56,058 bases of DNA, from the IMG/VR virus record IMGVR_UViG_3300030102_004176, positions 1 through 56,058 of that record. One strand, given 5' to 3'. The notes under the pieces are model-generated. The model made no database searches and had not been told where the DNA came from. It worked only from the letters and a program-made list of their open reading frames with translations. The translations under genes and the position numbers were made by a program. Below, in pieces: positions 16,693-40,328 of this stretch. The stretch is from a virus. Lineage: Duplodnaviria; Caudoviricetes. Within the stretch, counting starts at the first letter, position 1. Each line of letters begins with the position of its first letter.

Positions 16693-16947
16693 ATGAAAAC
16701 ATTTATTAAATCAAAAAGAACAATAAGTTTTTTACAACAAATAGAAAAGGCTCTACGACAAGTTGAAGCCACTGATTTTAGGGGCAATCCTTATGATGAT
16801 GGTGATGTCGCTGAGCATGTGAAAGATTTTAAAAAAATTGTATATCAATGTCCTGACACAGGTGTAGAACATCAAGTATTTGGCACAGATTTAGCAGCAG
16901 CTATGATAAAATCAGAAAACTTGGCTAAATGTGGGCAAGATGACTAA
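16693..16947 (+). CDS. hypothetical protein
   Basis: 84 aa ORF directly after the promoter, overlapping the next gene. Confidence 0.65.
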   Translation: MKTFIKSKRTISFLQQIEKALRQVEATDFRGNPYDDGDVAEHVKDFKKIVYQCPDTGVEHQVFGTDLAAAMIKSENLAKCGQDD

Positions 16948-17785
16948 CCCTTTTTTGTTAGAAACTCCTGGTGTCATAAACTTTTCCGGAGGCAGAACGT
17001 CTGGCTTTATGTTGCGAAAAATACTAGATGCTTTCGATGATAAGCTACCAAAAGATTTACCCGTTTGTTTTGCTAACACCGGTAAAGAGATGCCACAAAC
17101 TTTAGATTTTGTGCACGAGTGCTCTACAAAATGGAGTGTTCCTATTGTGTGGATGGAGTGGGATGATCAATCAGAAAACCATTTAAAAATTGTTGATTAT
17201 GAAACAGCATCAAGAAAAGGTGAACCTTATGAAAAATTAATAGACAGTAAAAGATTTTTACCTAACCCTGTTACAAGATATTGTACGTCTTATTTAAAAA
17301 TTAAAACTATGCGGGCATATTGTATGTTTCATTTAGGTTTTGAACATTGGATGTCTTATGTGGGTCTTAGATATGATGAGCCACATAGGGTAGCTAGACT
17401 GTCCAATCGTAATAAAAAAGAAAGATGGGAAACAGAAGCACCTTTACATAATGCAAAAATTACAGTGCAAAATGTTTTTGATTTCTGGAAAGATAATGAT
17501 TTTGATTTACGTTTACCAAATATTGGTGGTAAAACACCACAAGGTAATTGTGATTTGTGTTTTTTAAAAGGTGCAAACACAATAAAAAATATAATGAAAT
17601 CAGACCCAAAATTAGCTGATTGGTGGATATCTCAAGAAAGTAAAAAGATGGGCACGGGAAATGATCGTGCTGCATACTTTCGTAAGGACAGACCAAGCTA
17701 CGCTAAATTACTACAAAACACTGAAAATCAACTTGAATTATTTGAGTTTGATCAAGCAACCGATACATGTTTTTGTCACGATTAG
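16940..17785 (+). CDS. PAPS/APS reductase-family (PP-loop) protein
   Basis: FSGGRTSG PP-loop, FANTGKE, RYCTSYLKI, GLRYDE..R, GNCDLCFLKG, C-terminal CFC. Confidence 0.85.
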   Translation: MTNPFLLETPGVINFSGGRTSGFMLRKILDAFDDKLPKDLPVCFANTGKEMPQTLDFVHECSTKWSVPIVWMEWDDQSENHLKIVDYETASRKGEPYEKLIDSKRFLPNPVTRYCTSYLKIKTMRAYCMFHLGFEHWMSYVGLRYDEPHRVARLSNRNKKERWETEAPLHNAKITVQNVFDFWKDNDFDLRLPNIGGKTPQGNCDLCFLKGANTIKNIMKSDPKLADWWISQESKKMGTGNDRAAYFRKDRPSYAKLLQNTENQLELFEFDQATDTCFCHD

Positions 17786-25470: not shown

Positions 25471-26946
25471 ATGTCAATTAACAATTTGACCACAGACAAA
25501 TTGAGGCTCGAAGTAGAGAGACTCTTGATAAAAAACATTAAACTGTGCCAAGATAATTTTTTATATTTTGTAAAAGAGATGTGGCCTGATTTTATATATC
25601 GTAAAACCAAACTAAGGGATAACTGGGGTCATCATCAAATCATAGCAAATGAATTTACTAAAGTAGCTTCAGATAAAAAAGGGAGGCTCATAATAAATAT
25701 GCCTCCTAGACACACTAAATCAGAATTTGCTTCAATTTATTTTCCGGCATGGATGATAGGGAAGTTTCCTAAAATGAAAATTATGCAAGTATCACATAAC
25801 ACAGAACTTGCAGTACGATTTGGTTCTAAGGTTCGAAACATTGTTGGTTCATCTGAGTATAAACAAATCTTTGGTGACGTCAGATTGCGAGAAGATTCAA
25901 AAGCCAAAGGTAGATGGGAGACTAATCAAGGGGGTGAATATTACGCAGCTGGCGTCGGGGCGTCCATCACGGGTCGTGGTGCGGACTTACTGATTATTGA
26001 TGATCCACACACGGAACAAGATTCTTTATCTGACATGGCGATGGAACGTGCTTATGAATGGTATGCTTCAGGTCCAAGACAGCGTTTACAACCTGGAGGT
26101 TCAATTTTATTAGTAATGACGAGATGGGCAGAAGATGATTTAACCGGTCGTTTATTGAAGGCTCAAACTGAACCGAAAGCAGATTCTTGGCGTCAAATTT
26201 CATTCCCAGCGATCCTCGGTTCAGGGAACCCAGTCTGGCCTGAGTACTGGAACTTAGAAGAATTAGAAAAGATCAAAGCATCATTACCGATACGAAACTG
26301 GTCTGCTCAGTATATGCAGAATCCAACCAGTGAGGAAGGTGCAATTTTAAAACGAGAATGGTGGCGACCTTGGAAAGGACCCATACCGAATTTGATGCAT
26401 GTCATACAAAGTTATGATACAGCGTTCAGTAAGAGAGAGACAGCTGACTATTCAGCCATAACAACTTGGGGTGTATTTTTTCCAGAAGAAGGTGGGGGAC
26501 CCAATATAATTTTACTTGATGCTTTACGGGGTAAGTATGATTTTCCAGAATTAAAAGCAGTCGCTTTAGATGCACATAAGTATTGGGAACCCGAAAGTAT
26601 TATTATTGAACAGAAAGCTAGTGGTGAACCTTTGACTCAAGAGTTTAGAAGAATGGGTATACCGGTCATACCATTTGTTCCAAGTAAGGGTAATGACAAA
26701 CATACACGTGTTAATGCGACCTCTCCTATTTTTGAAAGTGGTGCTGTATGGTATCCGTATGGTGAGCATTTTGCAGAAGAAGTGATAGAGGAGTGTGCTG
26801 CATTTCCAAATGGTGCAAATGACGATTATGTTGACTCAACGACTCAAGCCCTACTAAGGTATCGCCAAGGCAACTTTGTTGAGTTATACTCAGATTATAT
26901 AGATAACGAGGATAGACCTCCTAAGGAATATAGATATTATGGATGA
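25471..26946 (+). CDS. terL: terminase large subunit
   Basis: MPPRHTKS (Walker A), LLIIDDP (Walker B), MTRW, SYDTA and DDYVD nuclease motifs. Confidence 0.95.
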   Translation: MSINNLTTDKLRLEVERLLIKNIKLCQDNFLYFVKEMWPDFIYRKTKLRDNWGHHQIIANEFTKVASDKKGRLIINMPPRHTKSEFASIYFPAWMIGKFPKMKIMQVSHNTELAVRFGSKVRNIVGSSEYKQIFGDVRLREDSKAKGRWETNQGGEYYAAGVGASITGRGADLLIIDDPHTEQDSLSDMAMERAYEWYASGPRQRLQPGGSILLVMTRWAEDDLTGRLLKAQTEPKADSWRQISFPAILGSGNPVWPEYWNLEELEKIKASLPIRNWSAQYMQNPTSEEGAILKREWWRPWKGPIPNLMHVIQSYDTAFSKRETADYSAITTWGVFFPEEGGGPNIILLDALRGKYDFPELKAVALDAHKYWEPESIIIEQKASGEPLTQEFRRMGIPVIPFVPSKGNDKHTRVNATSPIFESGAVWYPYGEHFAEEVIEECAAFPNGANDDYVDSTTQALLRYRQGNFVELYSDYIDNEDRPPKEYRYYG

Positions 26947-29278
26947 AGAGAATCAAGAATCGGGTGGTCCAGGTATATTTGGTGTACTTGGTGGAATCGG
27001 GGCAGCTGCTCTAGCATTACCTAAAGCAAGAAGAAAAATAGTAAAAGGCATCGGCGAGTTTTTTAGAGACGACGATAAAAAATTTAAAACTAGCGTAGAT
27101 AGATTTGCATCAAAAGCAGAGGCTCAAAAAGCTGAAAACATATCACAAGAGGTGTCAAAAGATTATCCCGATTTATACAAAGCCAATGAAGCGGCAATAA
27201 AAGAACAACAAGAGTTAGAAGATATTAGAAAAGCTGTACTAAAAAAACCTTTAAGTTTTGGTGGTAAGATTGATGATCCAGAACACAACTACACAGATCA
27301 ACTTGATGCTGTGCGTTTACCTGATTATAATTTTGGTTCAACACTTTATGATTTTGTAGCTTTACATCCGTCTAAAAAACCACTTACTGCTCAGCAGTGG
27401 TTGAGTGAATTCAAGAATCCACAAAGGATGGCAAACCTGAAGTATAAAACACCAGGTTTTGAAAACATAAAAGCAGGAGTTTCAAGACAAGAATTAAGTG
27501 ATGCAAATATCGCTGAGTTCGATGACAGCGGTAAATTAATTGGTGGTATTCTTAAATCAGCAGAAGATTCTAATGTTAAGGTAGGCAAAAAGATGTTACT
27601 GGATATGGCGTATGATACACCGGGTGCACGTTTACAAGTTACTGAATATGGTTTACCTATTAAGACAGTTAAAAAGGTAGAAGCTTTTTTAGATAAGGCA
27701 GAAGAAAGTTTAGCACATGAAGCACAAGTTGGGTATAAAAAAATTAGAAACGTGCTCGCTAAAGAAGCTGGTAATATTTTAGAAACAGAACAAAGGGCTA
27801 AAACTAAAAAAAACTTGGACGCAGTTTTAACATCACAATATGATCCTCTTGTGGATATGGCCGCACGCAATCTCGCAAAAATTAAAATGCAATTTACAAG
27901 GAATGATGCGATGGGCTTGGCAGGAGAAAAAGCCCTTAATGTAAATGCCAATATAATGCGACAGTTAAAAGACATAGAATTTCGTACAGGTATTTTTGAT
28001 ATGTTTAAAAATAATTTTGCTAGAGATAATATTCCAAAAACAAAAGCTGCTGTCGAAACATTTCAACAGACAGTGCCTAACAAAGCAAAAGAAGATTTAA
28101 GAGCTATGATGGGTGACATAGCTCGAGATTATGAGAAATTAAAGGGCAGTTCTATTAGAAGTGGTAATACTTCATACGGACAGCACGATGAATACAGGTT
28201 GAGTGGGCCTGAGACCTATCAAGAATTAATTGTTAACCTTACACCAAGAGCAGGAAGTTATAAAGGAAGAAGACCAGTAACTACAAAACACTATGGTCGA
28301 GATGCGCAGGCAACAGATCAACTATATTTTGTTCGTTATGGTGTACGTTCTGACTTCTACAATCCTGATATGAAAGGAATTACTATTGATGAGATACAAG
28401 CCGATATAGCACAACAGGTAAGAAAAAATAATCAAAAGCCACCAAACCCTTTTAATATTAATTTTCAAGAAAAACTTGTTGAGGAAAGAATCAAGGAAAT
28501 CCTACCACGGGCCAGGGAACTTTCTAATAAGGGTGTAAATATGACACCGAAAGAAAGACAAGAATTACGAGAAATAAATAATTCTGCTGCTACTTTGTAC
28601 AGATCGACAAGAAGAAGACGTGCGGATAGTCAGGTAGATAATCAGTCTACAACTAATTTTCAACCTTTGCAGGACAGTTCTGATTATGCTGAGCACGCTG
28701 TAAAGGTACTAATTAAAAAAGCGATGAGAGATGATTTAGATTTTATATCGGTAAACACTGTAGATGTTCAACATAATTTTAAACATCCAAATGCTGGTTA
28801 TAAAGGTATGGAAAATTTTTACGGAATGCAATCAGGTAGAAGTACTGCGCAAAAAGAAGCAATCTTAGAGGGTAAAAAAGTACCTCCTCTACCCGACGGC
28901 GAACTTGTAAAAGCAATGAAGAATATTGCTAAACAATACAATGGTCGTGTTGATAAAAGAATGGTCGCAAAAAGCGACCCTAGTAAACCATTCAAGGTAA
29001 TTAGGACTCTAAGCGATAAAACTATAGCTAATGTAGAGCCTGGACAAAAACCAAAACAATTTGATGAACACCTTGCAGCCTTCAAATCAAAAGCTGAAGT
29101 TGATGCGTATACTAGAGATCGGCAGGGTGAGGGTTTGAAAATAGAAAAGATAGAAGGTAGTGATCCAAAAAATTATTATGAGATACCTACTCTTGTAATA
29201 ACACCAGAAATGAAAACAAAACCTTTTAAAATATATAAGAGAGAAGGTGGACTAGTCGTAGACTTGTTTAAATGGTAG
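26939..29278 (+). CDS. large protein of unknown function, probably virion-associated
   Basis: 779 aa ORF between terL and portal; IDEIQAD motif; ends KREGGLVVDLFKW. Confidence 0.7.
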   Translation: MDEENQESGGPGIFGVLGGIGAAALALPKARRKIVKGIGEFFRDDDKKFKTSVDRFASKAEAQKAENISQEVSKDYPDLYKANEAAIKEQQELEDIRKAVLKKPLSFGGKIDDPEHNYTDQLDAVRLPDYNFGSTLYDFVALHPSKKPLTAQQWLSEFKNPQRMANLKYKTPGFENIKAGVSRQELSDANIAEFDDSGKLIGGILKSAEDSNVKVGKKMLLDMAYDTPGARLQVTEYGLPIKTVKKVEAFLDKAEESLAHEAQVGYKKIRNVLAKEAGNILETEQRAKTKKNLDAVLTSQYDPLVDMAARNLAKIKMQFTRNDAMGLAGEKALNVNANIMRQLKDIEFRTGIFDMFKNNFARDNIPKTKAAVETFQQTVPNKAKEDLRAMMGDIARDYEKLKGSSIRSGNTSYGQHDEYRLSGPETYQELIVNLTPRAGSYKGRRPVTTKHYGRDAQATDQLYFVRYGVRSDFYNPDMKGITIDEIQADIAQQVRKNNQKPPNPFNINFQEKLVEERIKEILPRARELSNKGVNMTPKERQELREINNSAATLYRSTRRRRADSQVDNQSTTNFQPLQDSSDYAEHAVKVLIKKAMRDDLDFISVNTVDVQHNFKHPNAGYKGMENFYGMQSGRSTAQKEAILEGKKVPPLPDGELVKAMKNIAKQYNGRVDKRMVAKSDPSKPFKVIRTLSDKTIANVEPGQKPKQFDEHLAAFKSKAEVDAYTRDRQGEGLKIEKIEGSDPKNYYEIPTLVITPEMKTKPFKIYKREGGLVVDLFKW

Positions 29279-29619: not shown

Positions 29620-31952
29620 TGGATGATGAAGATAATCTAGAAGAACAGGTTCAACCTGTTGATGTTGAAATTGAAGAACCTACCGATGAAGTTGTAGAAG
29701 AACAAGATGAACCTCAACAAGATTTTAATGCAAACTTAGCCGAAAACCTTGACGATAGAGTTTTAACATCTATGGCTCAACAGTTAATTTCTGATTACAG
29801 AAAAGACAAAGAGTCTAGAGGGGATTGGGAAAAATCATATACATCTGGACTTGATTTACTGGGTTTTAAATATGAGGGCGAGGGTCAACCTTTTAGAGGA
29901 GCTTCAAGTGTAACACACCCCTTACTTGCTGAATCCGTGACACAGTTTCAGGCACAAGCTTACAAAGAATTATTACCAAGTGATGGACCTGTAAAAACTA
30001 TGGTTGTAGGAGATGCAACTCCAGACAAAATAGATCAAGCTCAAAGAGTCAAAGACTTTATGAATTATATGGTTACAGAAGTTATGGAAGAGTATACACC
30101 AGAATTTGATCAAATGTTATTTTATTTACCTCTTGCAGGATCATCATTTAAAAAAGTTTATTACGACGATTTAATGCAGCGCGCTGTCAGTAAATTTGTT
30201 CCAGCAGAAGATTTAGTTGTGCCCTATTATGCATCCGATTTGAAAGACTGTGAAAGAATTACACACTGTATCAAGATGAGCGAAAATGATTTACTAAAAA
30301 AAATAAGCACAGGATTCTATAGAGATGTAAAAATTTATCCTACAGCTGCTGACGATAATGAAGTTCAGGATAAATATGACGAATTGGAGGGACTATCTCC
30401 AACTAAAGATAAAGAGTATCAGTATAATATTCTTGAAATGCATGTTGATATTGATTTAGAAGAATACGAGGTTGAAAATTCTGAAAAGAAAATAAAAGTA
30501 CCTTACATTGTTACTATCGATGAGGGATCACAAGAGGTTTTAAGTATATATCGAAACTATTTACCTGACGATCAATTATTTACTAGGCGTGAATATTTTG
30601 TGCATTACAAGTTTTTGCCCGGTTTAGGGTTTTATGGTTTTGGTTTAATACATATGATTGGTGGTTTGAGTAGAACTGCAACTGCTGCATTAAGACAATT
30701 GTTAGATGCAGGGACTTTAGCAAACTTACCAGCAGGTTTTAAGTCTAGAGGACTACGAATTAGAGACGATGAACAACCATTTCAACCAGGAGAGTTTAGA
30801 GATGTTGATGCACCTGGTGGAAATATTAAAGATCAGTTTCAAATTTTGCCTTTTAAAGAGCCTAGTAGCGTCTTAATGCAGCTTTTAGGCTTTGTTGTTC
30901 AAGCTGGACAGCGTTTTGCCTCTATTGCAGACATGCAAATTGGTGAAGATTCACAAAATCGTGCAGTTGGAACAACTTTGGCTCTTATGGAACGTGGTTC
31001 TAGGGTAATGAGTGCTATTCATAAGCGTTGTTACTACTCAATGCGACAAGAATTTAGACTTTTATCTAATGTTTTTGCCGAATATTTACCACCTGACTAC
31101 CCATACGCTGTTTATGGTGCCGATAGAGTGGTAAAAGCATTAGATTTTTCACCAGAAGTTGATGTTATACCAGTTGCGGACCCAAATTCTTTCTCAATGA
31201 GTCAAAGAGTAACGTTAGCATCACAACAATTACAAATTGCAAATGCTGCACCACAATTACACAACATTAGGGAGGCATATAGACGTGTTTATGAGTCTTT
31301 AGGTGCAAAAAAGATAGATGATTTACTTTTACCAGAAAAAAAACCAGAACCTATGGACCCTGGTGCAGAAAATTCACTAGCTTTACAAGCAAAACCACTT
31401 AAAGCATTTTATTTTCAAAACCATGATGCTCATATTGCAGCTCACGCTGCATTTATACAATCAAGAATGGTGCAGGCTAACCCTTTAGTGTATTCAATAT
31501 TACAAGCACACATATCTGAACATATTTCTTTCAAAGCAAGAGCACAAACTCTTCTATATATTAAAACAGAAAGACCTGATTTAGTTGAACTAGAGCAAAC
31601 AGATCCACAAGCATATCTTGCTGAATCAGAATCTATCATAGCTAGAACGATTGCTGAACTTACACAACAATTAGTTATGGCTGAGCAGGGCACAGAAAAA
31701 CCAGACCCTGTTGTAATGCTTAAAAACAGAGAACTTGATATTAAAGCTATGGATATGCAGAGAAAAGCTGCTGAGTTCCAGCAACAAGAACAAAGAAAAA
31801 CAGGTGAGTTTGACGAACGTATTGATCTTGATAAAATGAAAAGAGAAGATGCTGAAGAAGCATCAAAAGAAAGAATAAGAGTAGCTGATGAAAAGCTTGA
31901 GTTAAATGCTTTTAAAGTTGGCTTAGATCAGGCAGGTAAAAAAAATGAGTGA
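29619..31952 (+). CDS. portal protein
   Basis: 777 aa; HPLLAESVTQFQAQAYKELLP, LPLAGSSFKKVYYD, GFYGFGLIH, LLDAGTLANLP; lies between terL and the capsid genes. Confidence 0.88.
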   Translation: MDDEDNLEEQVQPVDVEIEEPTDEVVEEQDEPQQDFNANLAENLDDRVLTSMAQQLISDYRKDKESRGDWEKSYTSGLDLLGFKYEGEGQPFRGASSVTHPLLAESVTQFQAQAYKELLPSDGPVKTMVVGDATPDKIDQAQRVKDFMNYMVTEVMEEYTPEFDQMLFYLPLAGSSFKKVYYDDLMQRAVSKFVPAEDLVVPYYASDLKDCERITHCIKMSENDLLKKISTGFYRDVKIYPTAADDNEVQDKYDELEGLSPTKDKEYQYNILEMHVDIDLEEYEVENSEKKIKVPYIVTIDEGSQEVLSIYRNYLPDDQLFTRREYFVHYKFLPGLGFYGFGLIHMIGGLSRTATAALRQLLDAGTLANLPAGFKSRGLRIRDDEQPFQPGEFRDVDAPGGNIKDQFQILPFKEPSSVLMQLLGFVVQAGQRFASIADMQIGEDSQNRAVGTTLALMERGSRVMSAIHKRCYYSMRQEFRLLSNVFAEYLPPDYPYAVYGADRVVKALDFSPEVDVIPVADPNSFSMSQRVTLASQQLQIANAAPQLHNIREAYRRVYESLGAKKIDDLLLPEKKPEPMDPGAENSLALQAKPLKAFYFQNHDAHIAAHAAFIQSRMVQANPLVYSILQAHISEHISFKARAQTLLYIKTERPDLVELEQTDPQAYLAESESIIARTIAELTQQLVMAEQGTEKPDPVVMLKNRELDIKAMDMQRKAAEFQQQEQRKTGEFDERIDLDKMKREDAEEASKERIRVADEKLELNAFKVGLDQAGKKNE

Positions 31953-32397
31953 ATACAGATACCCTCCATTAAAAGGATTCAAACTTGAGGTTCCAGAACC
32001 AAGTCCTGAATATAAAGCATTGCAGGAACGCAGGTCAAAATACGACATAGAAGGTGAGCTTATTGACGATGAAAAATATGATTATGAAACTTTGACGTCA
32101 GATCCAGTTCAATATAGAAAAATAGGAAAAAAATCAAAATTTAGAAATGTTTATAAAAAAAGCCCAATAATGAAAGATCTTTACAAAGATCTAGAAGAAA
32201 GTCAAAAAAACAACCCTTTTAAAAGAAAAACAGGGGGTAAAGCATTCGGACCTCCTCCTAAAAAAGGACCACAGCCTCAGGGTATGAAAGATGGTAATTT
32301 AATTGGTTGCCCTCATAGAGAAAATGGTGTAAGAAGTGATATTAAGGGTATCAAAGAGATTCAAGTAAAAGGTAAAAAGTTTGTAGGTGTCCGATAA
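31945..32397 (+). CDS. hypothetical protein
   Basis: Coupled ORF; GPPPKKGPQPQG and C-terminal KGKKFVGVR. Confidence 0.7.
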   Translation: MSEYRYPPLKGFKLEVPEPSPEYKALQERRSKYDIEGELIDDEKYDYETLTSDPVQYRKIGKKSKFRNVYKKSPIMKDLYKDLEESQKNNPFKRKTGGKAFGPPPKKGPQPQGMKDGNLIGCPHRENGVRSDIKGIKEIQVKGKKFVGVR

Positions 32398-32493
32398 ACT
32401 TGAAAAATTAGTAAATATAATTATTGTTTTGTGTATTATAGAAATTATGATACATTCTGTAGAAGTAATGATTGATATACTACCTTACATAAA

Positions 32494-33096
32494 ATGATTA
32501 TAAAAGGCGACTCTACAGAATACCATTTACTCACTAAACACATAGGTAAACTTAAAATAGACAGAGCCACTTTGACTTGTGAAATAGGTCTAAGAGAAGG
32601 TTTAGGTTCGAAGATAATTATGGATGCAATTAGAGATCACAAACCACCACTTTATAAACATGTCGCTGTTGATCCGTACAATAATTTAAGTTATCAGCAT
32701 ACTGATGATGAGAAAGAGACCAGTGCTGATTACACAGAAGATATGAAACAAAGAGTTGTTTCTTATTTATATCAAAACTATCAAGAGTTTGATTTTTATC
32801 ATATGACAGATGAGTATTATTTTGAAGCTATGAAAGATGGACATCAGTTTTCAATTAATGGTAACTGTATGATATATGGCTTATACAAAGTTGTTCATCT
32901 TGATGGACCACATACGACGCATGCTGTCTTAGAAGAATTAAAGTTTTTTATCCCACGTATGGATGAAGAGGGTTTAATAATAATAGATGATTACACACGC
33001 CTTAAGATGGGTATTGTGGATATGCTCCTGAAGACTTATAATTTTAATGTTGCTGAAAAAGGTGACAATAAAATTATTTTTAAAAAGGAGATATAA
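32494..33096 (+). CDS. class I SAM-dependent methyltransferase
   Basis: EIGLREGLGS, AVDPY, VHLDGPH, IIIDDY. Confidence 0.8.
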   Translation: MIIKGDSTEYHLLTKHIGKLKIDRATLTCEIGLREGLGSKIIMDAIRDHKPPLYKHVAVDPYNNLSYQHTDDEKETSADYTEDMKQRVVSYLYQNYQEFDFYHMTDEYYFEAMKDGHQFSINGNCMIYGLYKVVHLDGPHTTHAVLEELKFFIPRMDEEGLIIIDDYTRLKMGIVDMLLKTYNFNVAEKGDNKIIFKKEI

Positions 33097-33464
33097 TGTT
33101 TCAAGCAATTATCGGTCCTGTCGCCAAGTTAGCTTCAACTTGGATTGAAGGACGTCAAAAAAAAGCTGAACTTAAATCAAAAGTTGAGTTAACAAAACTA
33201 GAAGCAACAAGAACAAGAATTGAGAAGGAAGGGACTTGGGACGAAAAACAAGCTGATGCAGCAGCAGATTCGTGGAAAGACGAAGCTTGGACCCTTGCGT
33301 TCATTGCCATAATTTTTGCATCCTTCATACCTGCACTTCAACCTTATATGAAAGAGGGATTTGTTTTTCTAAAAAACGATTGTCCTGAATGGTTAAGTTG
33401 GGGTATTCTAGCTTCGATTGCAGGATCATTCGGGCTAAAGAGTATTGCTAAGTTTAAAAAATAG
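33096..33464 (+). CDS. putative holin (3TM type)
   Basis: RBS AAGGAG; SWKDEAW, two TM helices, C-terminal SFGLK. Confidence 0.65.
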   Translation: MFQAIIGPVAKLASTWIEGRQKKAELKSKVELTKLEATRTRIEKEGTWDEKQADAAADSWKDEAWTLAFIAIIFASFIPALQPYMKEGFVFLKNDCPEWLSWGILASIAGSFGLKSIAKFKK

Positions 33465-33472
33465 ACTAAAAT
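33445..33472 (+). promoter_or_regulatory. candidate promoter for pqqA
   Basis: TTGCTA-16-TAAAAT, about 58 nt upstream of the ATG. Confidence 0.4.
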
Positions 33473-33529
33473 ATGTTTAGTGGACTGCGGTCACGAGGAC
33501 AACCAGCACTTTAATTTTAGGAGATAATT

Positions 33530-33604
33530 ATGTGGTCTAAACCTGTAATTACAGAAATTTCTGTTGGTCTTGAGATTAACAGTTATGCCTGTGCTGAAAA
33601 ATAA
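33530..33604 (+). CDS. pqqA: pyrroloquinoline quinone precursor peptide PqqA (24 aa, not in ORF track)
   Basis: MWSKPVITEISVGLEINSYACAEK: W-x-x-P leader, G-x-E-x-x-x-Y core and typical length. RBS AGGAGA at 33519-33524. Confidence 0.88.
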   Translation: MWSKPVITEISVGLEINSYACAEK

Positions 33605-33630
33605 AGTGATGGGGACTCAGTCCCCACACT
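33605..33630 (+). terminator. hairpin directly after pqqA
   Basis: TGGGGAC-tca-GTCCCCA with an AGTG/CACT extension; no strong T-tract. Confidence 0.6.
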
Positions 33631-33640
33631 AAATTTGTAT

Positions 33641-33760
33641 ATGGCTACTAAGATTGACAGATTATTGTGGTTTTTATTACAAATTTTATTTGGCTTTATG
33701 ATAGGTTTATTATTATTTTTAATTTTATATTTTATAGGAGTTTATTATGTTATTAACTAA
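33641..33760 (+). CDS. possible 39-aa membrane peptide
   Basis: MATKIDRLLWFLLQILFGFMIGLLLFLILYFIGVYYVIN; no clear RBS. Confidence 0.4.
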   Translation: MATKIDRLLWFLLQILFGFMIGLLLFLILYFIGVYYVIN

Positions 33761-33869
33761 AAATTTTATAAAATTTAATAACCTTTTGGTTAAAATACCT
33801 AATCAAACAAAACGTGTTTGGGATCTATCTGAAAACAGATGGGGTTACAAACTTGTCAAAGATATTTAG
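33747..33869 (+). CDS. 40-aa hypothetical protein
   Basis: RBS AGGAG; MLLTKNFIKFNNLLVKIPNQTKRVWDLSENRWGYKLVKDI. Confidence 0.5.
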   Translation: MLLTKNFIKFNNLLVKIPNQTKRVWDLSENRWGYKLVKDI

Positions 33870-34058
33870 AATAAAAGATTGTAGTGGCTCAAAGTTTCCA
33901 AGGAAAAGACGCTTACTTGAATATGTGTCACCAGTAAAATATTATGGTAAAAAGGTTTCAAAAAGTAGAAATAATAATTGCAAAGAAGACAAAGAGAAGG
34001 TATAACAAAAAAGGATTTACACATAGAAAAAAACTTGGACCTAAGTCTCATTTAAGAC

Positions 34059-34265
34059 ATGCTTGATATCGATACAATACAAACAGTTCGACATTATATC
34101 AAAAAACAAATTCAACAAACTAAAGATCATATTTGCTATGGTATAGACAAACTTGATCAACTACATTATGCTAAAGGCAAGCTCGCAGCCCTAGAGGCTG
34201 TGCTTCAGGATCTAAAAGACCTGCAAAATAGAGAGGATAGTGTAGATGACATTGATCAAACCTAA
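34059..34265 (+). CDS. conserved small protein upstream of GroES
   Basis: 68 aa helical ORF overlapping groES. Confidence 0.7.
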   Translation: MLDIDTIQTVRHYIKKQIQQTKDHICYGIDKLDQLHYAKGKLAALEAVLQDLKDLQNREDSVDDIDQT

Positions 34266-34680
34266 TACTAAGTTAGTCACACCTGACAAAGATGATGACG
34301 ACGAACCCTTAGTTCCGAAGGGTGCGAAAGAAACGGAACAATATCTTAAATTATTACCAAAACCAGTAGGATACAGACTTTTGATAAGACCTTATCAACC
34401 TAAGGCTAAAACAAAAGGCGGTCTTTATTTAACTGAAAAAACTCTTGAAACTCAACAAATGACAACAGTGGTTGGACTCGTCGTTAAAATGGGTGATCTT
34501 TGTTATAAAGATAAGGAGAAGTTTCCAACTGGACCTTGGTGCAAAGAGGGGCAGTTTATCGTTTATGGACGATATGCTGGCGCTCGATTTAAGACAAAAT
34601 ATGGTGAACATCGTATTTTAAACGATGATGAAATCATAGGAACTATTAACAAACCCGAGGATATCCTCGCATTATTCTAA
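34246..34680 (+). CDS. groES: co-chaperonin GroES (Cpn10)
   Basis: PVGYRLLI, KTKGGLYL, VVKMG, GRYAG, RILNDDEIIG. Confidence 0.9.
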   Translation: MTLIKPNTKLVTPDKDDDDEPLVPKGAKETEQYLKLLPKPVGYRLLIRPYQPKAKTKGGLYLTEKTLETQQMTTVVGLVVKMGDLCYKDKEKFPTGPWCKEGQFIVYGRYAGARFKTKYGEHRILNDDEIIGTINKPEDILALF

Positions 34681-34689
34681 GGAGTAATT

Positions 34690-35601
34690 ATGACTGAAGA
34701 AAATCAAGTTGAACTAGATACTGATGATGCAAAAGAAGAAACTTTGCATCTTGCAGAGAAACCTAAAGAAGAAAAACCTGAAAAGGTTGAAGTTGACTTA
34801 GGTTACACAGACCCAATTAAAACAGAAACAAAAGCGAAAGTTGTCGAAGAAGAAAAGACTGATGATAATTTACAAGATGTATCTGAAAACGTTCAGAAAA
34901 GAATTGATAAACTTACAAGAAAGTATAGAGAAGCCGAAAGAAGAGAAAAAGCTGCTCTTGACTATGCTAAAGGTTTGCAGAACAAATATTCAGGTCTTGA
35001 AAAAAAAGTACAAGAAACAGATAAAACATACGTTGAAGAATATGAAGCAAGAGTGGACTCTCAAAGAGAACAAGTAAAAAACAAACTTCAAAAAGCTATA
35101 GAAGACAACAATTCAGAAGCAATAATGAAAGCAAATGATGAGTTGACTCAATTAGCAGTAGAAAAAGAAAAAGCAAGGATAAAAAAATCTCAATTTGAGG
35201 AGGCTTCTGCACAAGCTAAAGCTCAAGTTGAACAACAAGCTCAACAACCAGTACAACAGCCTCAGCCTCCATCAAGGAAAGCTGAGAAGTGGGCTGAGGA
35301 TAATGATTGGTTTGGTAATGATCGGATAATGACAAGCGCTGCTTACGCTATCCATGAAGATTTGGTTACGCAGGGGTTTGACCCAGAGTCCGATGAGTAT
35401 TACAATGAGATAAACAAACATATGAAGGATAACTTCCCTCATAAGTTTGCAAACGATAAACAACGACCTGTGCAAACTGTTGCTTCTGCTGGAAGAAAAC
35501 AGGAAGGTCGCAGAACTGTGAAACTCACTCGATCACAGGTGGCTATTGCCAAAAAATTAGGAGTGCCACTAGAAGAATACGCAAAATTCGTGAAGGAGTA
35601 A
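34690..35601 (+). CDS. capsid scaffolding protein (putative)
   Basis: Acidic coiled coil, VQKRIDKLT, C-terminal KLTRSQVAIAKKLGVPLEEYAK; upstream of the capsid genes. Confidence 0.7.
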   Translation: MTEENQVELDTDDAKEETLHLAEKPKEEKPEKVEVDLGYTDPIKTETKAKVVEEEKTDDNLQDVSENVQKRIDKLTRKYREAERREKAALDYAKGLQNKYSGLEKKVQETDKTYVEEYEARVDSQREQVKNKLQKAIEDNNSEAIMKANDELTQLAVEKEKARIKKSQFEEASAQAKAQVEQQAQQPVQQPQPPSRKAEKWAEDNDWFGNDRIMTSAAYAIHEDLVTQGFDPESDEYYNEINKHMKDNFPHKFANDKQRPVQTVASAGRKQEGRRTVKLTRSQVAIAKKLGVPLEEYAKFVKE

Positions 35602-35604
35602 AAA

Positions 35605-36078
35605 ATGAACGAAAAACTAGTAAAAACCTCACGCGCGTCACAAGATAATAAGCCATTAAGGAATAAACCTTGGACGCCTCCGTCAAGTCTGGATGCACCC
35701 CCTGCACCAAAAGGGTTTGTACACAGATGGATAAGAACCGAACTTATGGGTCAAGAAGATACAGGTAATGTATCTAAAAAACTCAGAGAGGGTTGGGAAT
35801 TTGTGAGAGCAGAGGAAATAAAAAATCAACTCGGTGATCATAGTTATCCAGTGATACAAAAAGGACAATATCAGGGGTTAATTGGGGTTGGTGGCCTTGT
35901 GTTGGCAAGGATACCTGAAGAAATTGTAGAACAACGCAAGCAGTATTTTAAAAATCTTACTGCTGACCAAGTAAACGCCGTTGATCAAGATATTCTTAGG
36001 GAGCAACGACCAGAGATGCCTGTTAATATTAACAGACAATCTCGTGTAACTTTTGGTGGTGGTCGAAAATCAGAATAA
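35605..36078 (+). CDS. conserved head-module protein
   Basis: WTPPSSLDAPPAP..HRWIR, LREGWEFVR, GGLVLARIP. Confidence 0.75.
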   Translation: MNEKLVKTSRASQDNKPLRNKPWTPPSSLDAPPAPKGFVHRWIRTELMGQEDTGNVSKKLREGWEFVRAEEIKNQLGDHSYPVIQKGQYQGLIGVGGLVLARIPEEIVEQRKQYFKNLTADQVNAVDQDILREQRPEMPVNINRQSRVTFGGGRKSE

Positions 36079-36132
36079 TTTTTTGATAAAAGCCATCGCT
36101 GTAATATTAATGCTTATTTAAGGAGAATCTAA

Positions 36133-36732
36133 ATGGCAAATGTAAGTGAAAAGTTTGGTCTAAGACCTTATAAATCTCTTAATGGTGCTCCATGGAATGG
36201 TGCTCAGAATAGGTATACTATTGCAGCCAACTACGGAACAGCTATCTTCCAAGGTGACTTGGTGGTACCAACAGCTGCAGGTAACATTGAACGTTATGAT
36301 GTTACTGCAAGCTCAGGAGCTGTAAAACCTATTGGTGTGTTTAATGGTGTATTTTATACTGACCCAACTACGAGCAAACCAACATTTGGTAACTTTTATC
36401 CTGGCAGTGTCAACGCTAGTGATATTGTTGCTAATGTAATTGATGATCCCAATACGTTATTTTTAATTGATTCTGATGATGCTTTTACAAGAGCAGGTCT
36501 GTTTATTGGTTATAAAACTACTAACGTAACAGGAAACACAGTAACCGGTATATCTAAAGTACAACTTGATACGAGTACTGCAGATTCTACGAATGCAATT
36601 CCATTGCAGGCTGTAGATATATGCCAAGATGTTAACAATGAGGACACAACGACTGCTAATGCAAACATTGTTGTCCGTATTCAAAACCATTTTCTGAATC
36701 CACCGGCTGCTGCTGGTGATACAGGGGTATAA
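36133..36732 (+). CDS. capsid decoration/minor head protein (putative)
   Basis: RBS AAGGAGA; FGLRP, IFQGD, GVFNG, DDP motifs; immediately before the major capsid gene. Confidence 0.65.
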   Translation: MANVSEKFGLRPYKSLNGAPWNGAQNRYTIAANYGTAIFQGDLVVPTAAGNIERYDVTASSGAVKPIGVFNGVFYTDPTTSKPTFGNFYPGSVNASDIVANVIDDPNTLFLIDSDDAFTRAGLFIGYKTTNVTGNTVTGISKVQLDTSTADSTNAIPLQAVDICQDVNNEDTTTANANIVVRIQNHFLNPPAAAGDTGV

Positions 36733-36744
36733 GGGAGATATAAT

Positions 36745-37656
36745 ATGGCTATTTCAAGATCACAACTGGTCAAAGAGCTAGAGCCTGGTTTAAATGCTCT
36801 CTTTGGCTTAGAATATAATCGTTACGAAAACGAACATGCAGAAATTTTCGTTGCAGAAGCATCGGATAGAGCTTTTGAAGAAGAAGTAATGCTAAGCGGT
36901 TTCGGTAGTGCTCCAGTAAAAGAAGAAGGTTCGGGCGTCGCATTTGACCAAGCAACTGAATCTTTCACTGCGAGATACACTCACGAAACAATCGCAATGG
37001 CATTTGCTATCACTGAAGAAGCAATTGAAGATAATCTGTACGACAGATTAGCTGCTAGATACACAAGAGCACTTGCTCGTTCAATGGCTAACACTAAACA
37101 AGTAAAAGCTGCAAACGTACTTAACAATGCGTTTAATTCTAACTTTGCTGGTGGTGATGGTGTTGAACTATGTTCGACTGCTCATCCAATCGCTACTGGT
37201 GGTACGTTCGCAAATGAACTATCAACAGCTGCCGATTTATCTGAAACATCACTAGAGCAGTCTCTAATTGATATTGCTGCTTTCGTTGATGAAAGAGGAC
37301 TTAAAATTGCAATGCAAGGTGTTAAACTGATCATTCCAAAAGAACTTCAGTTTACTGCTGAGAGAATTTTAAGATCACCTCAGAGAGTTGGTACTGCTGA
37401 TAATGACATCAATGCTATGGCTTCTATGGGTATGATCCCACAAGGTTATAGAGTTAATCATTATCTAACAGATACTGATGCTTTCTTCATCATGACTGAT
37501 GCTCCAAACGGAATGAAACAATTCGTAAGAGCACCAATTAAAACTGCAATCGAAGGTGACTTTGATACTGGTAACGTCAGATTTAAAGCAAGAGAAAGAT
37601 ATTCTTTTGGTTTCTCTGACCCTAGAGGTATTTTTGGTTCACCTGGAGCTGCATAG
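36745..37656 (+). CDS. major capsid protein (Mu gpT-like family)
   Basis: MAISRSQLVKELEPGLNALFG...FKARERYSFG.SDPRG; followed by a strong terminator. Confidence 0.88.
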   Translation: MAISRSQLVKELEPGLNALFGLEYNRYENEHAEIFVAEASDRAFEEEVMLSGFGSAPVKEEGSGVAFDQATESFTARYTHETIAMAFAITEEAIEDNLYDRLAARYTRALARSMANTKQVKAANVLNNAFNSNFAGGDGVELCSTAHPIATGGTFANELSTAADLSETSLEQSLIDIAAFVDERGLKIAMQGVKLIIPKELQFTAERILRSPQRVGTADNDINAMASMGMIPQGYRVNHYLTDTDAFFIMTDAPNGMKQFVRAPIKTAIEGDFDTGNVRFKARERYSFGFSDPRGIFGSPGAA

Positions 37657-37680
37657 TTTCAGTGGTGAAATAAATTAAAG

Positions 37681-37709
37681 AAGGGGACTTACGAGTCCCC
37701 TTTTTTTTT
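37681..37709 (+). terminator. rho-independent terminator
   Basis: GGGGACT-tacg-AGTCCCC followed by T9. Confidence 0.9.
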
Positions 37710-37719
37710 GTATAATATA

Positions 37720-37795
37720 AAAACCAAGATTATATAAACTAGATATAGACTGACTTGGCAGACACCCTAGAGGACTATATCTTTTAACTAGGAAA
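37720..37795 (+). ncRNA. structured RNA, probable Mu-gpT-DE motif
   Basis: Located after the capsid terminator and a TATAAT. Crossing stems CCAAG/CTTGG and AGATATAG/CTATATCT around a GACTGAC..GCAGAC core. Confidence 0.55.
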
Positions 37796-37801
37796 AAAAT
37801 T

Positions 37802-38281
37802 ATGGCAAACACAACTTTTTCAGGTCCAGTTCGTTCAGAAAATGGATTTAAAAATATAATTAAAAACAGTATTGGCACAGTCACAAGTGACATGGGTTTA
37901 TCTGTTTACAGCACTTCAATTGCAATTGCTGCCACAGGCACAGATCACAAAGAAACATCAATTGGTATTCCATCTAATTTTATACCAATGGGTGTGGCAG
38001 TAACAGTTACAAGTGCGGCAGCAAACGCAGTTAACTTAGTTGACATAGGCACAGAGGCTGATGACGATGGTTTCGTTGATGGTATTTCTGCTGCAATAAA
38101 TAGCACAGGCTTCAAAGGGTTCTTCCCTTGCAATGGTGTGTTAGGAATGTCAGGTGGAGCAACTACTGCTGCAACTGAAACAGCAGACGAAGTACAAGTC
38201 GTAGTATCTGGAACTGCTGGTGCAGGTGGTGTTGTAGCACTTAAGTTTTTTGGTTTATCCTCTGATTCACCAACTACTTAA
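37802..38281 (+). CDS. virion structural protein (putative)
   Basis: Starts MANTTFSGPVRS; Ala/Gly/Thr-rich. Confidence 0.7.
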   Translation: MANTTFSGPVRSENGFKNIIKNSIGTVTSDMGLSVYSTSIAIAATGTDHKETSIGIPSNFIPMGVAVTVTSAAANAVNLVDIGTEADDDGFVDGISAAINSTGFKGFFPCNGVLGMSGGATTAATETADEVQVVVSGTAGAGGVVALKFFGLSSDSPTT

Positions 38282-38293
38282 TAGGAGAAAAAT

Positions 38294-38602
38294 ATGAACT
38301 CTGATGTAGGTGCAAAAACATTAACATCAACAGGTACGATTCAATCTGGCAGAACTAGATTGCTATCAATATATTATGTTGGTCATGCTTCAGCAGGTAC
38401 TCTTACATTTAAAGATGGAGGAGGTAGTGGTACACAAAAATTAGTTATTACAACACCAGCTAGTAGTGCAGCAGATCAATATCAAATTGATATACCTCTT
38501 GATGGCATTGTTTTTAAAACAGATATGCATTTAACAATTTCCAATGTTACGTCAGTAACTGTGTTTGTAACACCAGTCACTGCTGATACTGACAATGGAT
38601 AA
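38294..38602 (+). CDS. small virion structural protein (putative)
   Basis: RBS AGGAGA; beta-rich composition. Confidence 0.7.
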   Translation: MNSDVGAKTLTSTGTIQSGRTRLLSIYYVGHASAGTLTFKDGGGSGTQKLVITTPASSAADQYQIDIPLDGIVFKTDMHLTISNVTSVTVFVTPVTADTDNG

Positions 38603-38915
38603 TAGTTACTATGATGATTTAGACCTTTTTGGTTTAGCGAAAGGTGGTATGCCTGCTCGTAATAAAAAAAACTATAGGTCTACAAAATCAGGTGCGGGAA
38701 TGACTGAAGCTGGGGTGAAAGCGTATAGACGTTTAAACCCTGGCTCTAAGTTAAAAACTGCTGTTACTGGAAAAGTTAAAAAGGGCAGCAAAGCAGCTAA
38801 ACGCAGAAAATCATATTGTTCTAGAAGTAAGGGACAGATGAAAATGCATAATATTAATTGTCAAAAAACGCCAAACAAAAGAATTTGTCAGGCGAGAAGG
38901 AGATGGAAATGTTAG
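38595..38915 (+). CDS. basic conserved phage protein
   Basis: GMTEAGVKAYRRLNPGSKLKTAV...RRKSYCSRS...RRRWKC. Confidence 0.75.
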   Translation: MDNSYYDDLDLFGLAKGGMPARNKKNYRSTKSGAGMTEAGVKAYRRLNPGSKLKTAVTGKVKKGSKAAKRRKSYCSRSKGQMKMHNINCQKTPNKRICQARRRWKC

Positions 38916-39022
38916 AGAAAATTAAATTTTATAAAGAAATGATAAAAGACTTGTATGTTACTAATAAAGACCTTATAGTAGTTGTGTTATGTGGTTTATT
39001 AGTGATGTCTTGGATGTTGTAG
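38909..39022 (+). CDS. 37-aa membrane peptide upstream of the endolysin
   Basis: RBS AGGAG; MLEKIKFYKEMIKDLYVTNKDLIVVVLCGLLVMSWML. Confidence 0.5.
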   Translation: MLEKIKFYKEMIKDLYVTNKDLIVVVLCGLLVMSWML

Positions 39023-39109
39023 CAACTTCAATCTTATTATTGGTATTTTTATTTTTTTTATCAATAGGGAGTGCTTGGACGATATTATCTTATCCAATCA
39101 ATAAATTAT

Positions 39110-39571
39110 ATGCAATTAACAGAAAACTTTTCACTCGCAGAGTTGACAAAATCGCAGACAGCGACTCGTCTAGGTTACGATAACAAACCTAATCAGATGC
39201 AAGTTTTAGCTCTGACTAAACTTTGTGAAAATGTTCTTCAACCTGTAAGAAATAAATTTGAAATGCCAGTGTTTATATCATCAGGATTTAGGTCAGCTCG
39301 TTTAAGTGAGGCAATTGGTTCTTCAAGTAAGTCTCAACACTGCAAAGGGGAGGCTGCCGATATAGAAATTTTTGGCGTAGATAACAAAATACTTGCTCGT
39401 TGGATTCATAATAATATTAAATATGACCAGCTAATATTAGAGTTTTATAAGGAGTCAGAAGGGCCAAATAGCGGATGGGTTCACGTTTCATACACTGACA
39501 ATTGTCGCAAACAATTTTTAAAAGCATATAAAGATGCGAAAGGAAAGACGAGGTATATACCATGGCAATAA
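39110..39571 (+). CDS. endolysin, peptidase M15A family
   Basis: NFSLAELTKS, SSGFRS, SQHCKGEAADI, WVHVSY (Zn ligands H, D, H). Confidence 0.88.
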   Translation: MQLTENFSLAELTKSQTATRLGYDNKPNQMQVLALTKLCENVLQPVRNKFEMPVFISSGFRSARLSEAIGSSSKSQHCKGEAADIEIFGVDNKILARWIHNNIKYDQLILEFYKESEGPNSGWVHVSYTDNCRKQFLKAYKDAKGKTRYIPWQ

Positions 39572-39660
39572 CAAGATCACAAATGAAAAAACAAATAGAA
39601 ACACCTCCTAGCAAAAAGAGAAAAATAGTGAGGGGTAGAAATAATTCTAAAAAAGGGTAG
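39562..39660 (+). CDS. 32-aa basic peptide with a capsid-like N-terminus
   Basis: MAITRSQMKKQIETPPSKKRKIVRGRNNSKKG; GAGGT upstream. Confidence 0.55.
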   Translation: MAITRSQMKKQIETPPSKKRKIVRGRNNSKKG

Positions 39661-39668
39661 AATTAATT

Positions 39669-40328
39669 ATGACAAAATTATGTGCTAGAGGCAAATCTGC
39701 TGCAAAAAGAAAATTTAAGGTATACCCAAGTGCTTATGCAAATGCATATGCATCGAAAATCTGTGCAGGTAAAATAAAAGATCCGAGCGGTGTAAAACGT
39801 AAAGATTTTAAAGGACCTAAGCCAGCCAAAAAAGGGGCAATGATAAAAGCAAGTGAGGGTAAAGATATAGAAAAAAAAAATAAAGTAAGTCTAGCAAATA
39901 AATTACCAACTAATGTAAAAAAGAAAAAATTAGGTTTTTTAGGAAAAAGAATTGGCGCCGTAGGAGTTGTAGCTACAGTCGGCAGTATGTTAAAAAATTT
40001 AGGAGAAAAAGCTTACACAGCACAAAAAGCTGGTCAGTATAGAAAAGAAAAAAAACCAACAGCTACTTTTCAAAAAAGAAGTACAAAAAAACAACAAATA
40101 AGAGATCAAAAATCTGAAAGATTTATAAAAGATGGCAATACATCTACATCTCGTATTTTAGGTGATGAAGCCCAAAAAAGTAACTCGTCCGACAGTTATG
40201 AGTTTAGTAAGGGTGGCTTTAATAAAGTTAGTAATCACGAAGTTATGGGTTCACAATTAGTAGGTGAGATTGATGGACAGCCCGTGTCTGCTAAAGGGTC
40301 TTTAAAATATTACGAAGATTTATTATAA
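39669..40328 (+). CDS. basic conserved phage protein
   Basis: N-terminus KLCARGKSAAKRKFKVYPSAYANAYASKIC. Confidence 0.75.
   Translation: MTKLCARGKSAAKRKFKVYPSAYANAYASKICAGKIKDPSGVKRKDFKGPKPAKKGAMIKASEGKDIEKKNKVSLANKLPTNVKKKKLGFLGKRIGAVGVVATVGSMLKNLGEKAYTAQKAGQYRKEKKPTATFQKRSTKKQQIRDQKSERFIKDGNTSTSRILGDEAQKSNSSDSYEFSKGGFNKVSNHEVMGSQLVGEIDGQPVSAKGSLKYYEDLL

Follow-up and report, generated by a model that had tools for sequence, protein, structure and literature searches.

The question raised by the DNA considered here is why a phage should carry a gene for the precursor peptide of a cofactor without any of the genes that mature it. The DNA is the viral record IMGVR_UViG_3300030102_004176 of the IMG/VR collection (hereafter the window, that is, the whole stretch of 56,058 nucleotides that was analysed), and the gene in question is a 24-codon open reading frame (ORF) for PqqA, the precursor of pyrroloquinoline quinone (PQQ). 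In the biosynthesis of PQQ, the enzyme PqqE together with its chaperone PqqD cross-links a Glu and a Tyr of PqqA, whereupon a protease, PqqB and PqqC complete the cofactor. One PqqA peptide is consumed for each molecule of PQQ. The gene of the window is a real, selected and orphan pqqA, which resides on a small mobile cassette in a phage of the HTVC023P type, and it probably functions as an auxiliary metabolic gene (AMG) that would supply the consumable precursor to PqqB-E of the host.

The identity of the gene was first proposed in a first-pass annotation made from the letters of the DNA alone. Translation of the ORF on the forward strand returns exactly the peptide quoted there, and the assignment proved to be bona fide: the peptide exceeds the cut-offs of both curated hidden Markov models (HMMs) of PqqA, namely TIGR02107 (cut-off 20), with 36.4 bits and an E-value of 3.3e-9 over model positions 1-21 of 21, and PF08042 (cut-off 21.1), with 29.3 bits over model positions 1-19 of 19. 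The window peptide resembles bacterial PqqA in its length, in the W-x2-P leader and in the G-x-E-x3-Y core, and it holds the Glu and the Tyr of the E-x3-Y cross-link motif as E15 and Y19. The ribosome-binding site that had been described was likewise found ahead of the start codon (Table 1), and its GGAG is retained in all 27 distinct upstream variants listed. Moreover, the window gene and the pqqA copies of pelagic host bacteria both feature a GC hairpin directly after the stop codon. Bacterial pqqA, on the other hand, is the first gene of pqqABCDE(F), whereas the window copy sits in a block of phage late genes and is accompanied by no pqqB-F, neither nearby nor anywhere in the genome.

This orphan state, which the first-pass annotation had asserted for a near-complete genome, was borne out by two types of search. 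The HMMs of PqqE, PqqD, PqqC, PqqB and PqqF gave no match at E<=10 in the window, which is 94% complete according to CheckV. Since the PqqC model gave no signal in any control genome, the absence of PqqC rests on tblastn, for which PqqB-E of the canonical Caenispirillum operon (L178) served as queries. These queries recovered the operon at 62 of the 120 cellular loci with the window-type motif, whereas neither the window nor 120 viral loci gave a match. Neither pqqB-E nor a PQQ dehydrogenase was present in 381 viral loci (3.16 Mb of sequence searched). The lack of adjacency to pqqB-E does not exclude membership in the PqqA family: 58 of the 120 cellular loci likewise show pqqA without pqqB-E within the 8 kb examined, and PqqE is encoded elsewhere in the genome for three of the four cellular pqqA-only loci whose genome was examined.

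In order to judge selection on the peptide, its conservation has to be read from sequences that were collected independently of it. Because the pattern scans used to find further copies force the residues W, P, G, E and Y, and another regular expression forces 12 residues, conservation was read only from sets anchored on the neighbouring GroES gene or on a conserved non-coding element upstream of pqqA. A 17-base pattern of this 5' element constitutes a peptide-independent anchor, and its complete scan yielded 109 stretches in 75 distinct contexts. In 58 of these contexts an intact G-x-E-x3-Y ORF follows, while 15 show unrelated spacers without pqqA, taken as chance matches, and two more lie at contig ends. 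Across the 36 distinct pqqA nucleotide sequences anchored in this manner, residues G13-K24 are invariant, and each of the codons concerned occurs in two to three synonymous forms. E15 is encoded by GAG in 26 and by GAA in 10 sequences, Y19 by TAT in 32 and by TAC in four, and S18 by AGT, AGC or TCT. The cross-link residues, the conservation of which in phage homologs had been named as a check, are hence invariant in the presence of synonymous change. The leader half varies (S3N, V6I/S, E9V, I10V, S11A, V12I), mostly in a conservative manner. This pattern of codon variation indicates that the part of the peptide used by PQQ chemistry is under strong purifying selection. As a separate observation, in a few phage variants the acidic leader residue E9 is replaced by Val (T-V-V for T-E-I) while the whole core is kept, an exchange that could bear on recognition by PqqD.

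The same pattern bears on a rival explanation, according to which the phage peptide would be a decoy or inhibitor that binds PqqD/PqqE of the host unproductively and shuts down PQQ synthesis, for instance to redirect radical-SAM (S-adenosylmethionine) enzymes and SAM resources or to alter periplasmic redox metabolism. Such a role would agree with pqqA being an orphan in every phage examined, with a leader half that differs from that of host peptides (Ala2 is absent, and T/S, M/V/I and S/T changes occur) and with the variants that carry Val for the leader Glu. Yet a decoy requires neither the cross-link residues nor those that follow the Tyr, and it is exactly the stretch from G13 to K24 that does not vary; the leader changes, in turn, are conservative. 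Furthermore, hosts amplify pqqA to 1-5 copies, which points to a demand for substrate, and phages of obligate methylotrophs would by means of a decoy cut off the only energy source of their host. The decoy model is therefore disfavoured on the grounds of sequence, and we regard both the model and the purposes suggested for it as quite improbable. Between the two uses that the first-pass annotation had offered, supply of substrate is favoured by the invariant core with E15 and Y19 and by the conservative leader changes, the supply itself being what we infer.

The gene does not stand alone. Alignment with relatives reveals a discrete insertion/deletion unit of about 160-190 b: positions 33476-33662 are missing from the close relative L246 and positions 33473-33743 from L262 and L266, with both flanks aligned in each case, while L247 and a contig from an RNA library retain 33479-33631 without 33632-33734. 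In its extent this cassette agrees with the compact unit noticed at first, the promoter excepted. The candidate promoter found no support, given that four such sites occur in the 500-b region against 2.7+/-1.5 in shuffles, which is chance level. Moreover, the site is situated outside the cassette, where it runs into the 3' part of the preceding gene and belongs to sequence common to relatives without pqqA.

At its 5' side the cassette carries the 30-nt element mentioned above, a candidate stem-loop that possibly acts as an mRNA stabiliser. The element occurs once in the window against 0 expected by chance, and in 46 viral loci as well as in L132, a phage-like contig filed in a metagenome-assembled genome (MAG), it precedes pqqA by 23-35 nt. 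It is found upstream of pqqA in none of the other 119 cellular loci, which sets the window copy apart from bacterial pqqA. In addition, the element and pqqA occur together in the loci L011, L015, L084 and L118, which otherwise share little with the window. Regarding its structure, 94.7% of cells pair in 12 of 23 distinct variants, chosen by the analyst, as compared to 21-57% in controls in which the partner strand was slid by 1-3 columns. Changes in both partners are seen for three pairs, where shuffles give 0.5 (two of 500 shuffles reach three), a covariation comprising few events and scored on the same sequences from which the structure was derived. A single-sequence fold of the 5' leader of the window was no better than shuffles (z = 0.15), and Rfam searches around the cassette at E<=10 returned sub-threshold chance matches only.

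The hairpin that had been noticed downstream of the gene is present (Table 1); one of 200 shuffles folds as well, and no T-run follows the stem on the + strand of the window. Among the distinct variants listed, 29 of 30 possess a downstream hairpin of -11.7 kcal/mol or better with differing stem sequences, and since many of them carry a T-run after the stem, these hairpins resemble intrinsic terminators. The pqqA copies of pelagic or low-GC hosts share this design, with 44 of 62 at -10 kcal/mol or better.

The distribution of the cassette was assessed in the 80 closest loci, which were retrieved via the neighbouring GroES (71-97% identical) and inspected with a six-frame PqqA HMM search and by synteny. 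In 40 of them pqqA stands at the same place, and one further copy is cut by the edge of the locus. The gene is absent from 13 relatives in which both flanking genes are present, and it was not detected in another 27, where the insertion site cannot be delimited. All 40 carriers possess a GroES that is at least 81.9% identical to that of the window.

This recurrence also addresses the trivial explanation that a bacterial pqqA came to lie in a viral contig through chimeric assembly, as the first-pass annotation had considered, or through contamination with host DNA. Forty independent IMG/VR contigs show the same synteny between phage genes, and in the window, too, pqqA is flanked on both sides by viral genes, namely those for terminase, portal, GroES and capsid. 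Furthermore, the stretch, in whole or in part, is contained in marine metagenome runs from 11 studies, where 4 of 20 runs may be its source, and DNA homology to host loci does not extend beyond the ORF. No evidence in favour of an artefact emerged, although a bacterial origin might be hinted at by the lone cellular record with an identical peptide, L132, which is titled as a contig of a Maricaulis MAG; this record, however, is itself a phage contig with 35.8% GC and homologs of 11 window proteins. An artefact is thus effectively refuted already, and we assign it a negligible probability. As to L132 (NZMJ01000006.1, titled MAG: Maricaulis sp. isolate IN14, 13.8 kb), this contig is closely related to the window: the portal proteins are 89% identical, the PqqA peptides do not differ, and the 5' element is present. 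It is probably mis-binned.

Beyond the GroES-anchored relatives, orphan pqqA occurs in at least 218 viral contigs of IMG/VR, a number which speaks to the prevalence in viromes that had been proposed for examination. A general PqqA-shaped pattern matched at least 120 stretches, and all 119 readable ones are short M-(x)-W-x2-P...Y ORFs; 99 of those listed are of the ...FGFEVTMY... type and 20 of the ...GLEIN.YACAE... type to which the window peptide belongs. A scan for the latter type returned at least 119 stretches. At loci with surroundings matching window proteins, pqqA is co-oriented with the respective genes, the sole exception being the endolysin gene in L018. The position of pqqA varies among such loci: it is located 138-190 nt after the capsid gene in eight, after the endolysin gene in four, between portal and GroES in five and between terminase and portal in one.

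Among 50,697 phage records, neither megablast of window positions 30000-40000 nor tblastn of the window peptide gave a match, while tblastn of the ...FGFEVTMY... type peptide matched 12 records. Nine of these are isolates on OM43/LD28 hosts (Methylophilales/Methylophilaceae), namely Venkman, P19250A, MEP301, MEP401, MEP402 and four Melnitz phages; the others comprise one uncultured virus and two weaker matches in Acinetobacter phages. Exactly one pqqA above the TIGR02107 cut-off is present per complete genome in Venkman (MT375522.1, 9977-10045, - strand, 37.6 bits), P19250A (KX815270.1, 28085-28153, - strand, 36.4 bits), MEP301 (MW452941.1, 3316-3384, - strand, 33.0 bits) and Melnitz-1 (MZ577095.1, 74888-74953, + strand, 31.6 bits), and the PqqE and PqqB HMMs gave no match in these four genomes. 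Hence, the cultured methylotroph phages resemble the window in bearing a single pqqA without PqqE or PqqB. They differ from it in the peptide type, virion type, genome position and host, and in Venkman, P19250A and MEP301 the strand opposite to pqqA carries its neighbouring genes. In the records of Venkman, P19250A, MEP301, MEP401 and MEP402 nothing is annotated at the match, and the sole annotation there in the four Melnitz records is a 'hypothetical protein', which in Melnitz-1 is placed on the opposite strand, next to a tRNA-Leu gene. With a length of only 24 codons, pqqA is missed by gene callers.

A third explanation holds that the gene has another role or none, being a selfish or neutral mini-cassette that hitch-hikes on phage genomes, or that the peptide is used outside PQQ synthesis in signalling, regulation or the interplay with phage defence; this would apply particularly if the host lacked pqqB-E. 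It is in line with the cassette being an indel polymorphism and dispensable, and with the 5' element and pqqA recurring in the four loci named above that have little else in common with the window. In addition, a mining study speculated on links between RiPPs (peptides made on the ribosome and modified after translation) of the PqqA family and phage interaction, based on co-expression with defence systems (PMC11118758). On the contrary, purifying selection is strict on exactly those residues that PQQ chemistry needs. Moreover, the type of the peptide tracks the host, since ...FGFEVTMY... is found in phages of Methylophilales/Methylophilaceae and ...GLEIN.YACAE... matches Alphaproteobacteria with pqq operons, and nine isolate records with a pqqA match stem from PQQ-dependent methylotroph hosts. 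We consider this explanation unlikely.

The match between phage and host peptides was traced further in order to delimit the host. A scan of one-genome-per-species cellular contigs (185,579 species genomes) for the window-type core motif returned at least 120 stretches. By their record titles, almost all of the cellular matches listed are Alphaproteobacteria or groups thereof, which upholds the earlier impression of an alphaproteobacterial-type peptide; four (L142, L152, L176, L196) are titled after another phylum or class, and some of these may be mis-binned. Low-GC cellular loci (25-36% G+C) contain the 16 C-terminal residues of the window peptide without any change, and all nine tested genomes with the ...EISVGLEINSYACAEK subtype (1.3-2.0 Mb) fall into a single order, which has 42 species representatives. 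A related subtype, ...INCYACAE[IL], which is common in viral contigs too, belongs to a different order of 46 species. The candidate host order is a small one of marine Alphaproteobacteria with genomes of 0.8-2.0 Mb that carry pqqABCDE, and 39 of its 42 species possess pqqA in 1-5 copies. A PQQ-dependent dehydrogenase of the methanol/ethanol family (above the cut-off, at ~670 bits) is encoded about 5-6 kb from a pqqA copy in four of five genomes of the order; in G001, this copy is the one that heads the operon. The dehydrogenase adjacent to the operon is ascribed to the XoxF/ExaF family. 'Pelagibacteraceae bacterium TMED13' and 'Rickettsiales bacterium MED657' are among the NCBI titles found in the order. 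A literature search found no paper joining 'AEGEAN-169' with 'PQQ'. The order may correspond to 'Clade X', to which the oceanic xoxF5 genes with the highest expression are reported to belong (PMC11996626). Taken together, the peptide subtype suggests that the host is likely a member of this small order of streamlined low-GC marine Alphaproteobacteria and not a canonical SAR11 strain.

With such a host, the supply of precursor would proceed in four steps. During infection, the phage would transcribe a short message bracketed by the 5' stem-loop and the 3' GC hairpin, from which the cell would make the 24-residue PqqA peptide in quantity. PqqD and PqqE of the host would cross-link E15 to Y19, and the host protease, PqqB and PqqC would finish PQQ. 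As a consequence, periplasmic PQQ-dependent oxidation of alcohol or methanol and respiration would be kept up while host gene expression fails, to the presumed benefit of the phage. Because one peptide is destroyed per molecule of PQQ, extra supply of the peptide would sustain cofactor synthesis, and the phage pqqA would amount to an added dosage of the pathway's single consumable component, expressed from a small, probably stable message of the late region. Cyanophages follow a like principle with psbA, where the phage replenishes a host component subject to consumption or fast turnover and thereby prolongs energy metabolism through infection. However, psbA encodes a complete functional protein, whereas the product of pqqA is no more than a sacrificial substrate, which is of no use in the absence of five host enzymes. 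Amplification of the precursor gene is known from methylotrophs, for which 3-12 copies of pqqA are described, with the remaining pqq genes (pqqB-G) present in one set (PMC4109929), and individual copies are reported to differ greatly in expression (PMC9851590).

Several points weigh against precursor supply or against the host proposed for it. For one thing, the amount of precursor need not be what limits the synthesis of PQQ in these hosts. Regarding expression, a 186-nt metatranscriptome contig from one of three runs (X18) spans 33479-33631 with three differences and then joins 33735, a junction equal to the arrangement of L247; since contigs of RNA libraries may derive from DNA, it does not prove transcription, and its start at 33479 is not readable as a transcript start. 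In the other two runs, X19 and X20, the pqqA ORF was not covered. Furthermore, the gene is dispensable, because three close relatives with a GroES at least 81.9% identical (L246, L262 and L266) cleanly lack the cassette and no pqqA is found in the four closest deposited phages, HTVC023P, HTVC027P, 023Pt_psg01 and DSL-LC04. With respect to the host, phage and host pqqA share 70-81% DNA identity confined to the ORF, so that a transfer between them was not recent. A linkage based on the capsid protein gave a match in one of the 42 candidate-order genomes (74% identical), which is not significant as compared to no match among the 46 genomes from the order with the ...INCY... subtype and four of 401 (44-61% identity) in an even sample of the class. 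Finally, Pelagibacter HTCC1062 is the strain from which HTVC023P and HTVC027P were obtained in culture, so that a SAR11 host is possible. The single capsid match belongs to the contig G032:C15 (L330, 18.8 kb), which is filed in a candidate-order genome and is wholly an HTVC023P-like phage, with a portal 54% and a capsid 74% identical to the window and no pqqA; it represents either a captured infection or a binning error.

Viral PqqA as such is not new, contrary to what the first-pass annotation implied. It was reported in 2020 as an auxiliary gene of the virus population VP_266 from Lake Baikal (Coutinho et al. 2020, PMC7678222), and pqqA, pqqD and pqqE are listed as virus-encoded in a reservoir sediment study of 2026 (PMC13188868). 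By its description, VP_266 is similar to the case presented here in that a virus-encoded PqqA was read as boosting PQQ for host dehydrogenases; the likeness is drawn from that description and not from sequence. VP_266 is a freshwater population with a predicted methylotroph host and also encodes a methanol dehydrogenase, whereas the window, an HTVC023P-type genome of marine origin, has a peptide of alphaproteobacterial type and lacks a dehydrogenase. Among the papers listed by searches of the literature on pqqA with phage or auxiliary metabolic genes, nothing else was relevant. The main text of an AMG survey of 82 HTVC023P-type genomes (Wittmers et al. 2022, PMC9599517), the supplementary tables of which were outside the scope, holds no occurrence of 'pqq', nor do the papers on Venkman, MEP301 and the MEP401/402 lineage; in the Melnitz paper the string appears once, in the growth medium. 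As far as these searches reach, the marine alphaproteobacterial-type member, the anatomy of the cassette, the evidence for selection, the prevalence and the presence in cultured methylotroph phages are new.

A RiPP precursor without tailoring enzymes constitutes an unusual auxiliary gene, given that it provides a sacrificial substrate only and depends wholly on host enzymes. A wider reading of the data, which we put forward as tentative and somewhat doubtful, is that orphan pqqA might be a general, overlooked signature of phages of PQQ-dependent methanol and alcohol oxidisers, borne on a mobile mini-cassette and of a subtype that reads out the host. The same tentative reading would have the cassette, composed of a phage-specific 5' stabilising stem-loop, ribosome-binding site, pqqA and terminator, moving between unrelated lineages of marine alphaproteobacterial phages, and this branch of the supposedly SAR11-specific HTVC023P-type phages preying on streamlined, XoxF-bearing members of a small alphaproteobacterial order. 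In that case, a 24-codon gene that is skipped by gene callers would be the means by which viruses control methanol oxidation in the sea. Apart from this reading, pqqA offers a cheap host-prediction marker for phages of PQQ-dependent bacteria. As a lead, part of the HTVC023P-type 'pelagiphage' group may infect a different, methanol- or alcohol-oxidising order of Alphaproteobacteria. The phage-host pairs of OM43 and LD28 provide ready laboratory systems for the question of precursor supply during infection.

Table 1. Location of the pqqA cassette, its signals and adjoining genes in the window.
Feature	Position	Strand	Basis
pqqA, 24 codons and TAA stop; cross-link residues E15 and Y19	33530..33604	+	Translation, HMMs, codon variation
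Ribosome-binding site AGGAGA, 5 nt 5' of the ATG (33530)	33519..33524	+	Read directly
pqqA cassette, insertion/deletion unit, minimal extent	33476..33631	+	Alignment with relatives
Conserved 5' stem-loop element of the phage cassette (candidate)	33480..33509	+	30 nt; alignment-derived structure
GC-rich hairpin after the stop codon, terminator- or stabiliser-like	33609..33627	+	-16.7 kcal/mol, z = -3.5
Promoter-like site TTGCTA-16-TAAAAT (unsupported)	33445..33472	+	9/12 positions match
Membrane protein, 122 aa, possible holin	33096..33464	+	phrog_2524 (unknown function), E 6e-23
Small hydrophobic ORF adjoining the cassette, variably present	33641..33760	+	ORF list; conserved in L246
GroES-like co-chaperonin; synteny anchor	34246..34680	+	phrog_3188, E 4.5e-17; PF00166, 40.2 bits
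Major capsid protein	36745..37656	+	phrog_371; 81.6% identical to HTVC023P capsid

The window comprises the whole record, which is linear, has about 35% G+C and contains no tRNA gene. It encodes an SNF2 helicase, Pam3 gp33/gp34-like proteins, a primase-like protein, a UvrD helicase and a family-A DNA polymerase as well as terminase, portal, a GroES-like co-chaperonin, the major capsid protein and an endolysin. Its best matches among the 50,697 phage records are found in Pelagibacter phage HTVC023P (capsid 81.6% and TerL 75.6% identical) as well as in phage DSL-LC04, phage 023Pt_psg01 and Pelagibacter phage HTVC027P, and on these grounds the window is considered an HTVC023P-type, podovirus-like genome. 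It has in common with these pelagiphages the order portal-GroES-capsid and a genome size of about 56-61 kb, and differs from the four deposited genomes by its pqqA. GroES is described as a core gene of HTVC023P-type phages (PMC9599517).

The neighbours named in the first-pass annotation were recovered in part: the GroES-like gene and the capsid gene are present as described (Table 1), while the 122-aa membrane protein is only a possible holin, its sole family hint being a sub-threshold match to PF11351 GTA_holin_3TM (19.2 bits against 24.8). PF11351 is a holin family of alphaproteobacterial gene-transfer agents, and the match may be a weak pointer to a role in lysis and to an alphaproteobacterial host. 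On the other side of the cassette, the segment 33632-33734 that is missing from L247 and the X18 contig contains the start and most of the small hydrophobic ORF. In the cassette-free relatives (L246 5481-6801; L262 974-2354), two extra ORFs of ~225 and 235-255 aa, which are not in the window, sit between the gene of the 122-aa membrane protein and a 68-aa gene that precedes GroES; since other ORFs occupy the interval there, it is a hot spot for accessory cargo.

Some minor observations concern the arrangement of cellular pqqA copies and the remainder of the window. Tandem triplets of pqqA precede pqqB in cellular genomes (L149, 2975-3725; L194, 2135-2819), and inverted pqqA pairs about 100-850 nt apart (L135, 345-491; G004:C5, 9553-10463) are either real inverted repeats or assembly artefacts. 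Three very large ORFs of the window (878, 1072 and 779 aa, within 114-5965 and 26939-29278) have no Pfam match, and the two of them that were searched against PHROG gave no match there; the 779-aa ORF lies between terminase and portal. Further genes of accessory appearance encode a protein of the phrog_3704 'ferredoxin' family (category moron/AMG; 7060-7737), a protein with a PAPS (3'-phosphoadenosine 5'-phosphosulfate) reductase domain (16931-17785), a Methyltransf_24 methyltransferase just upstream of the cassette region (32494-33096) and a group-1 glycosyltransferase (53497-54426).

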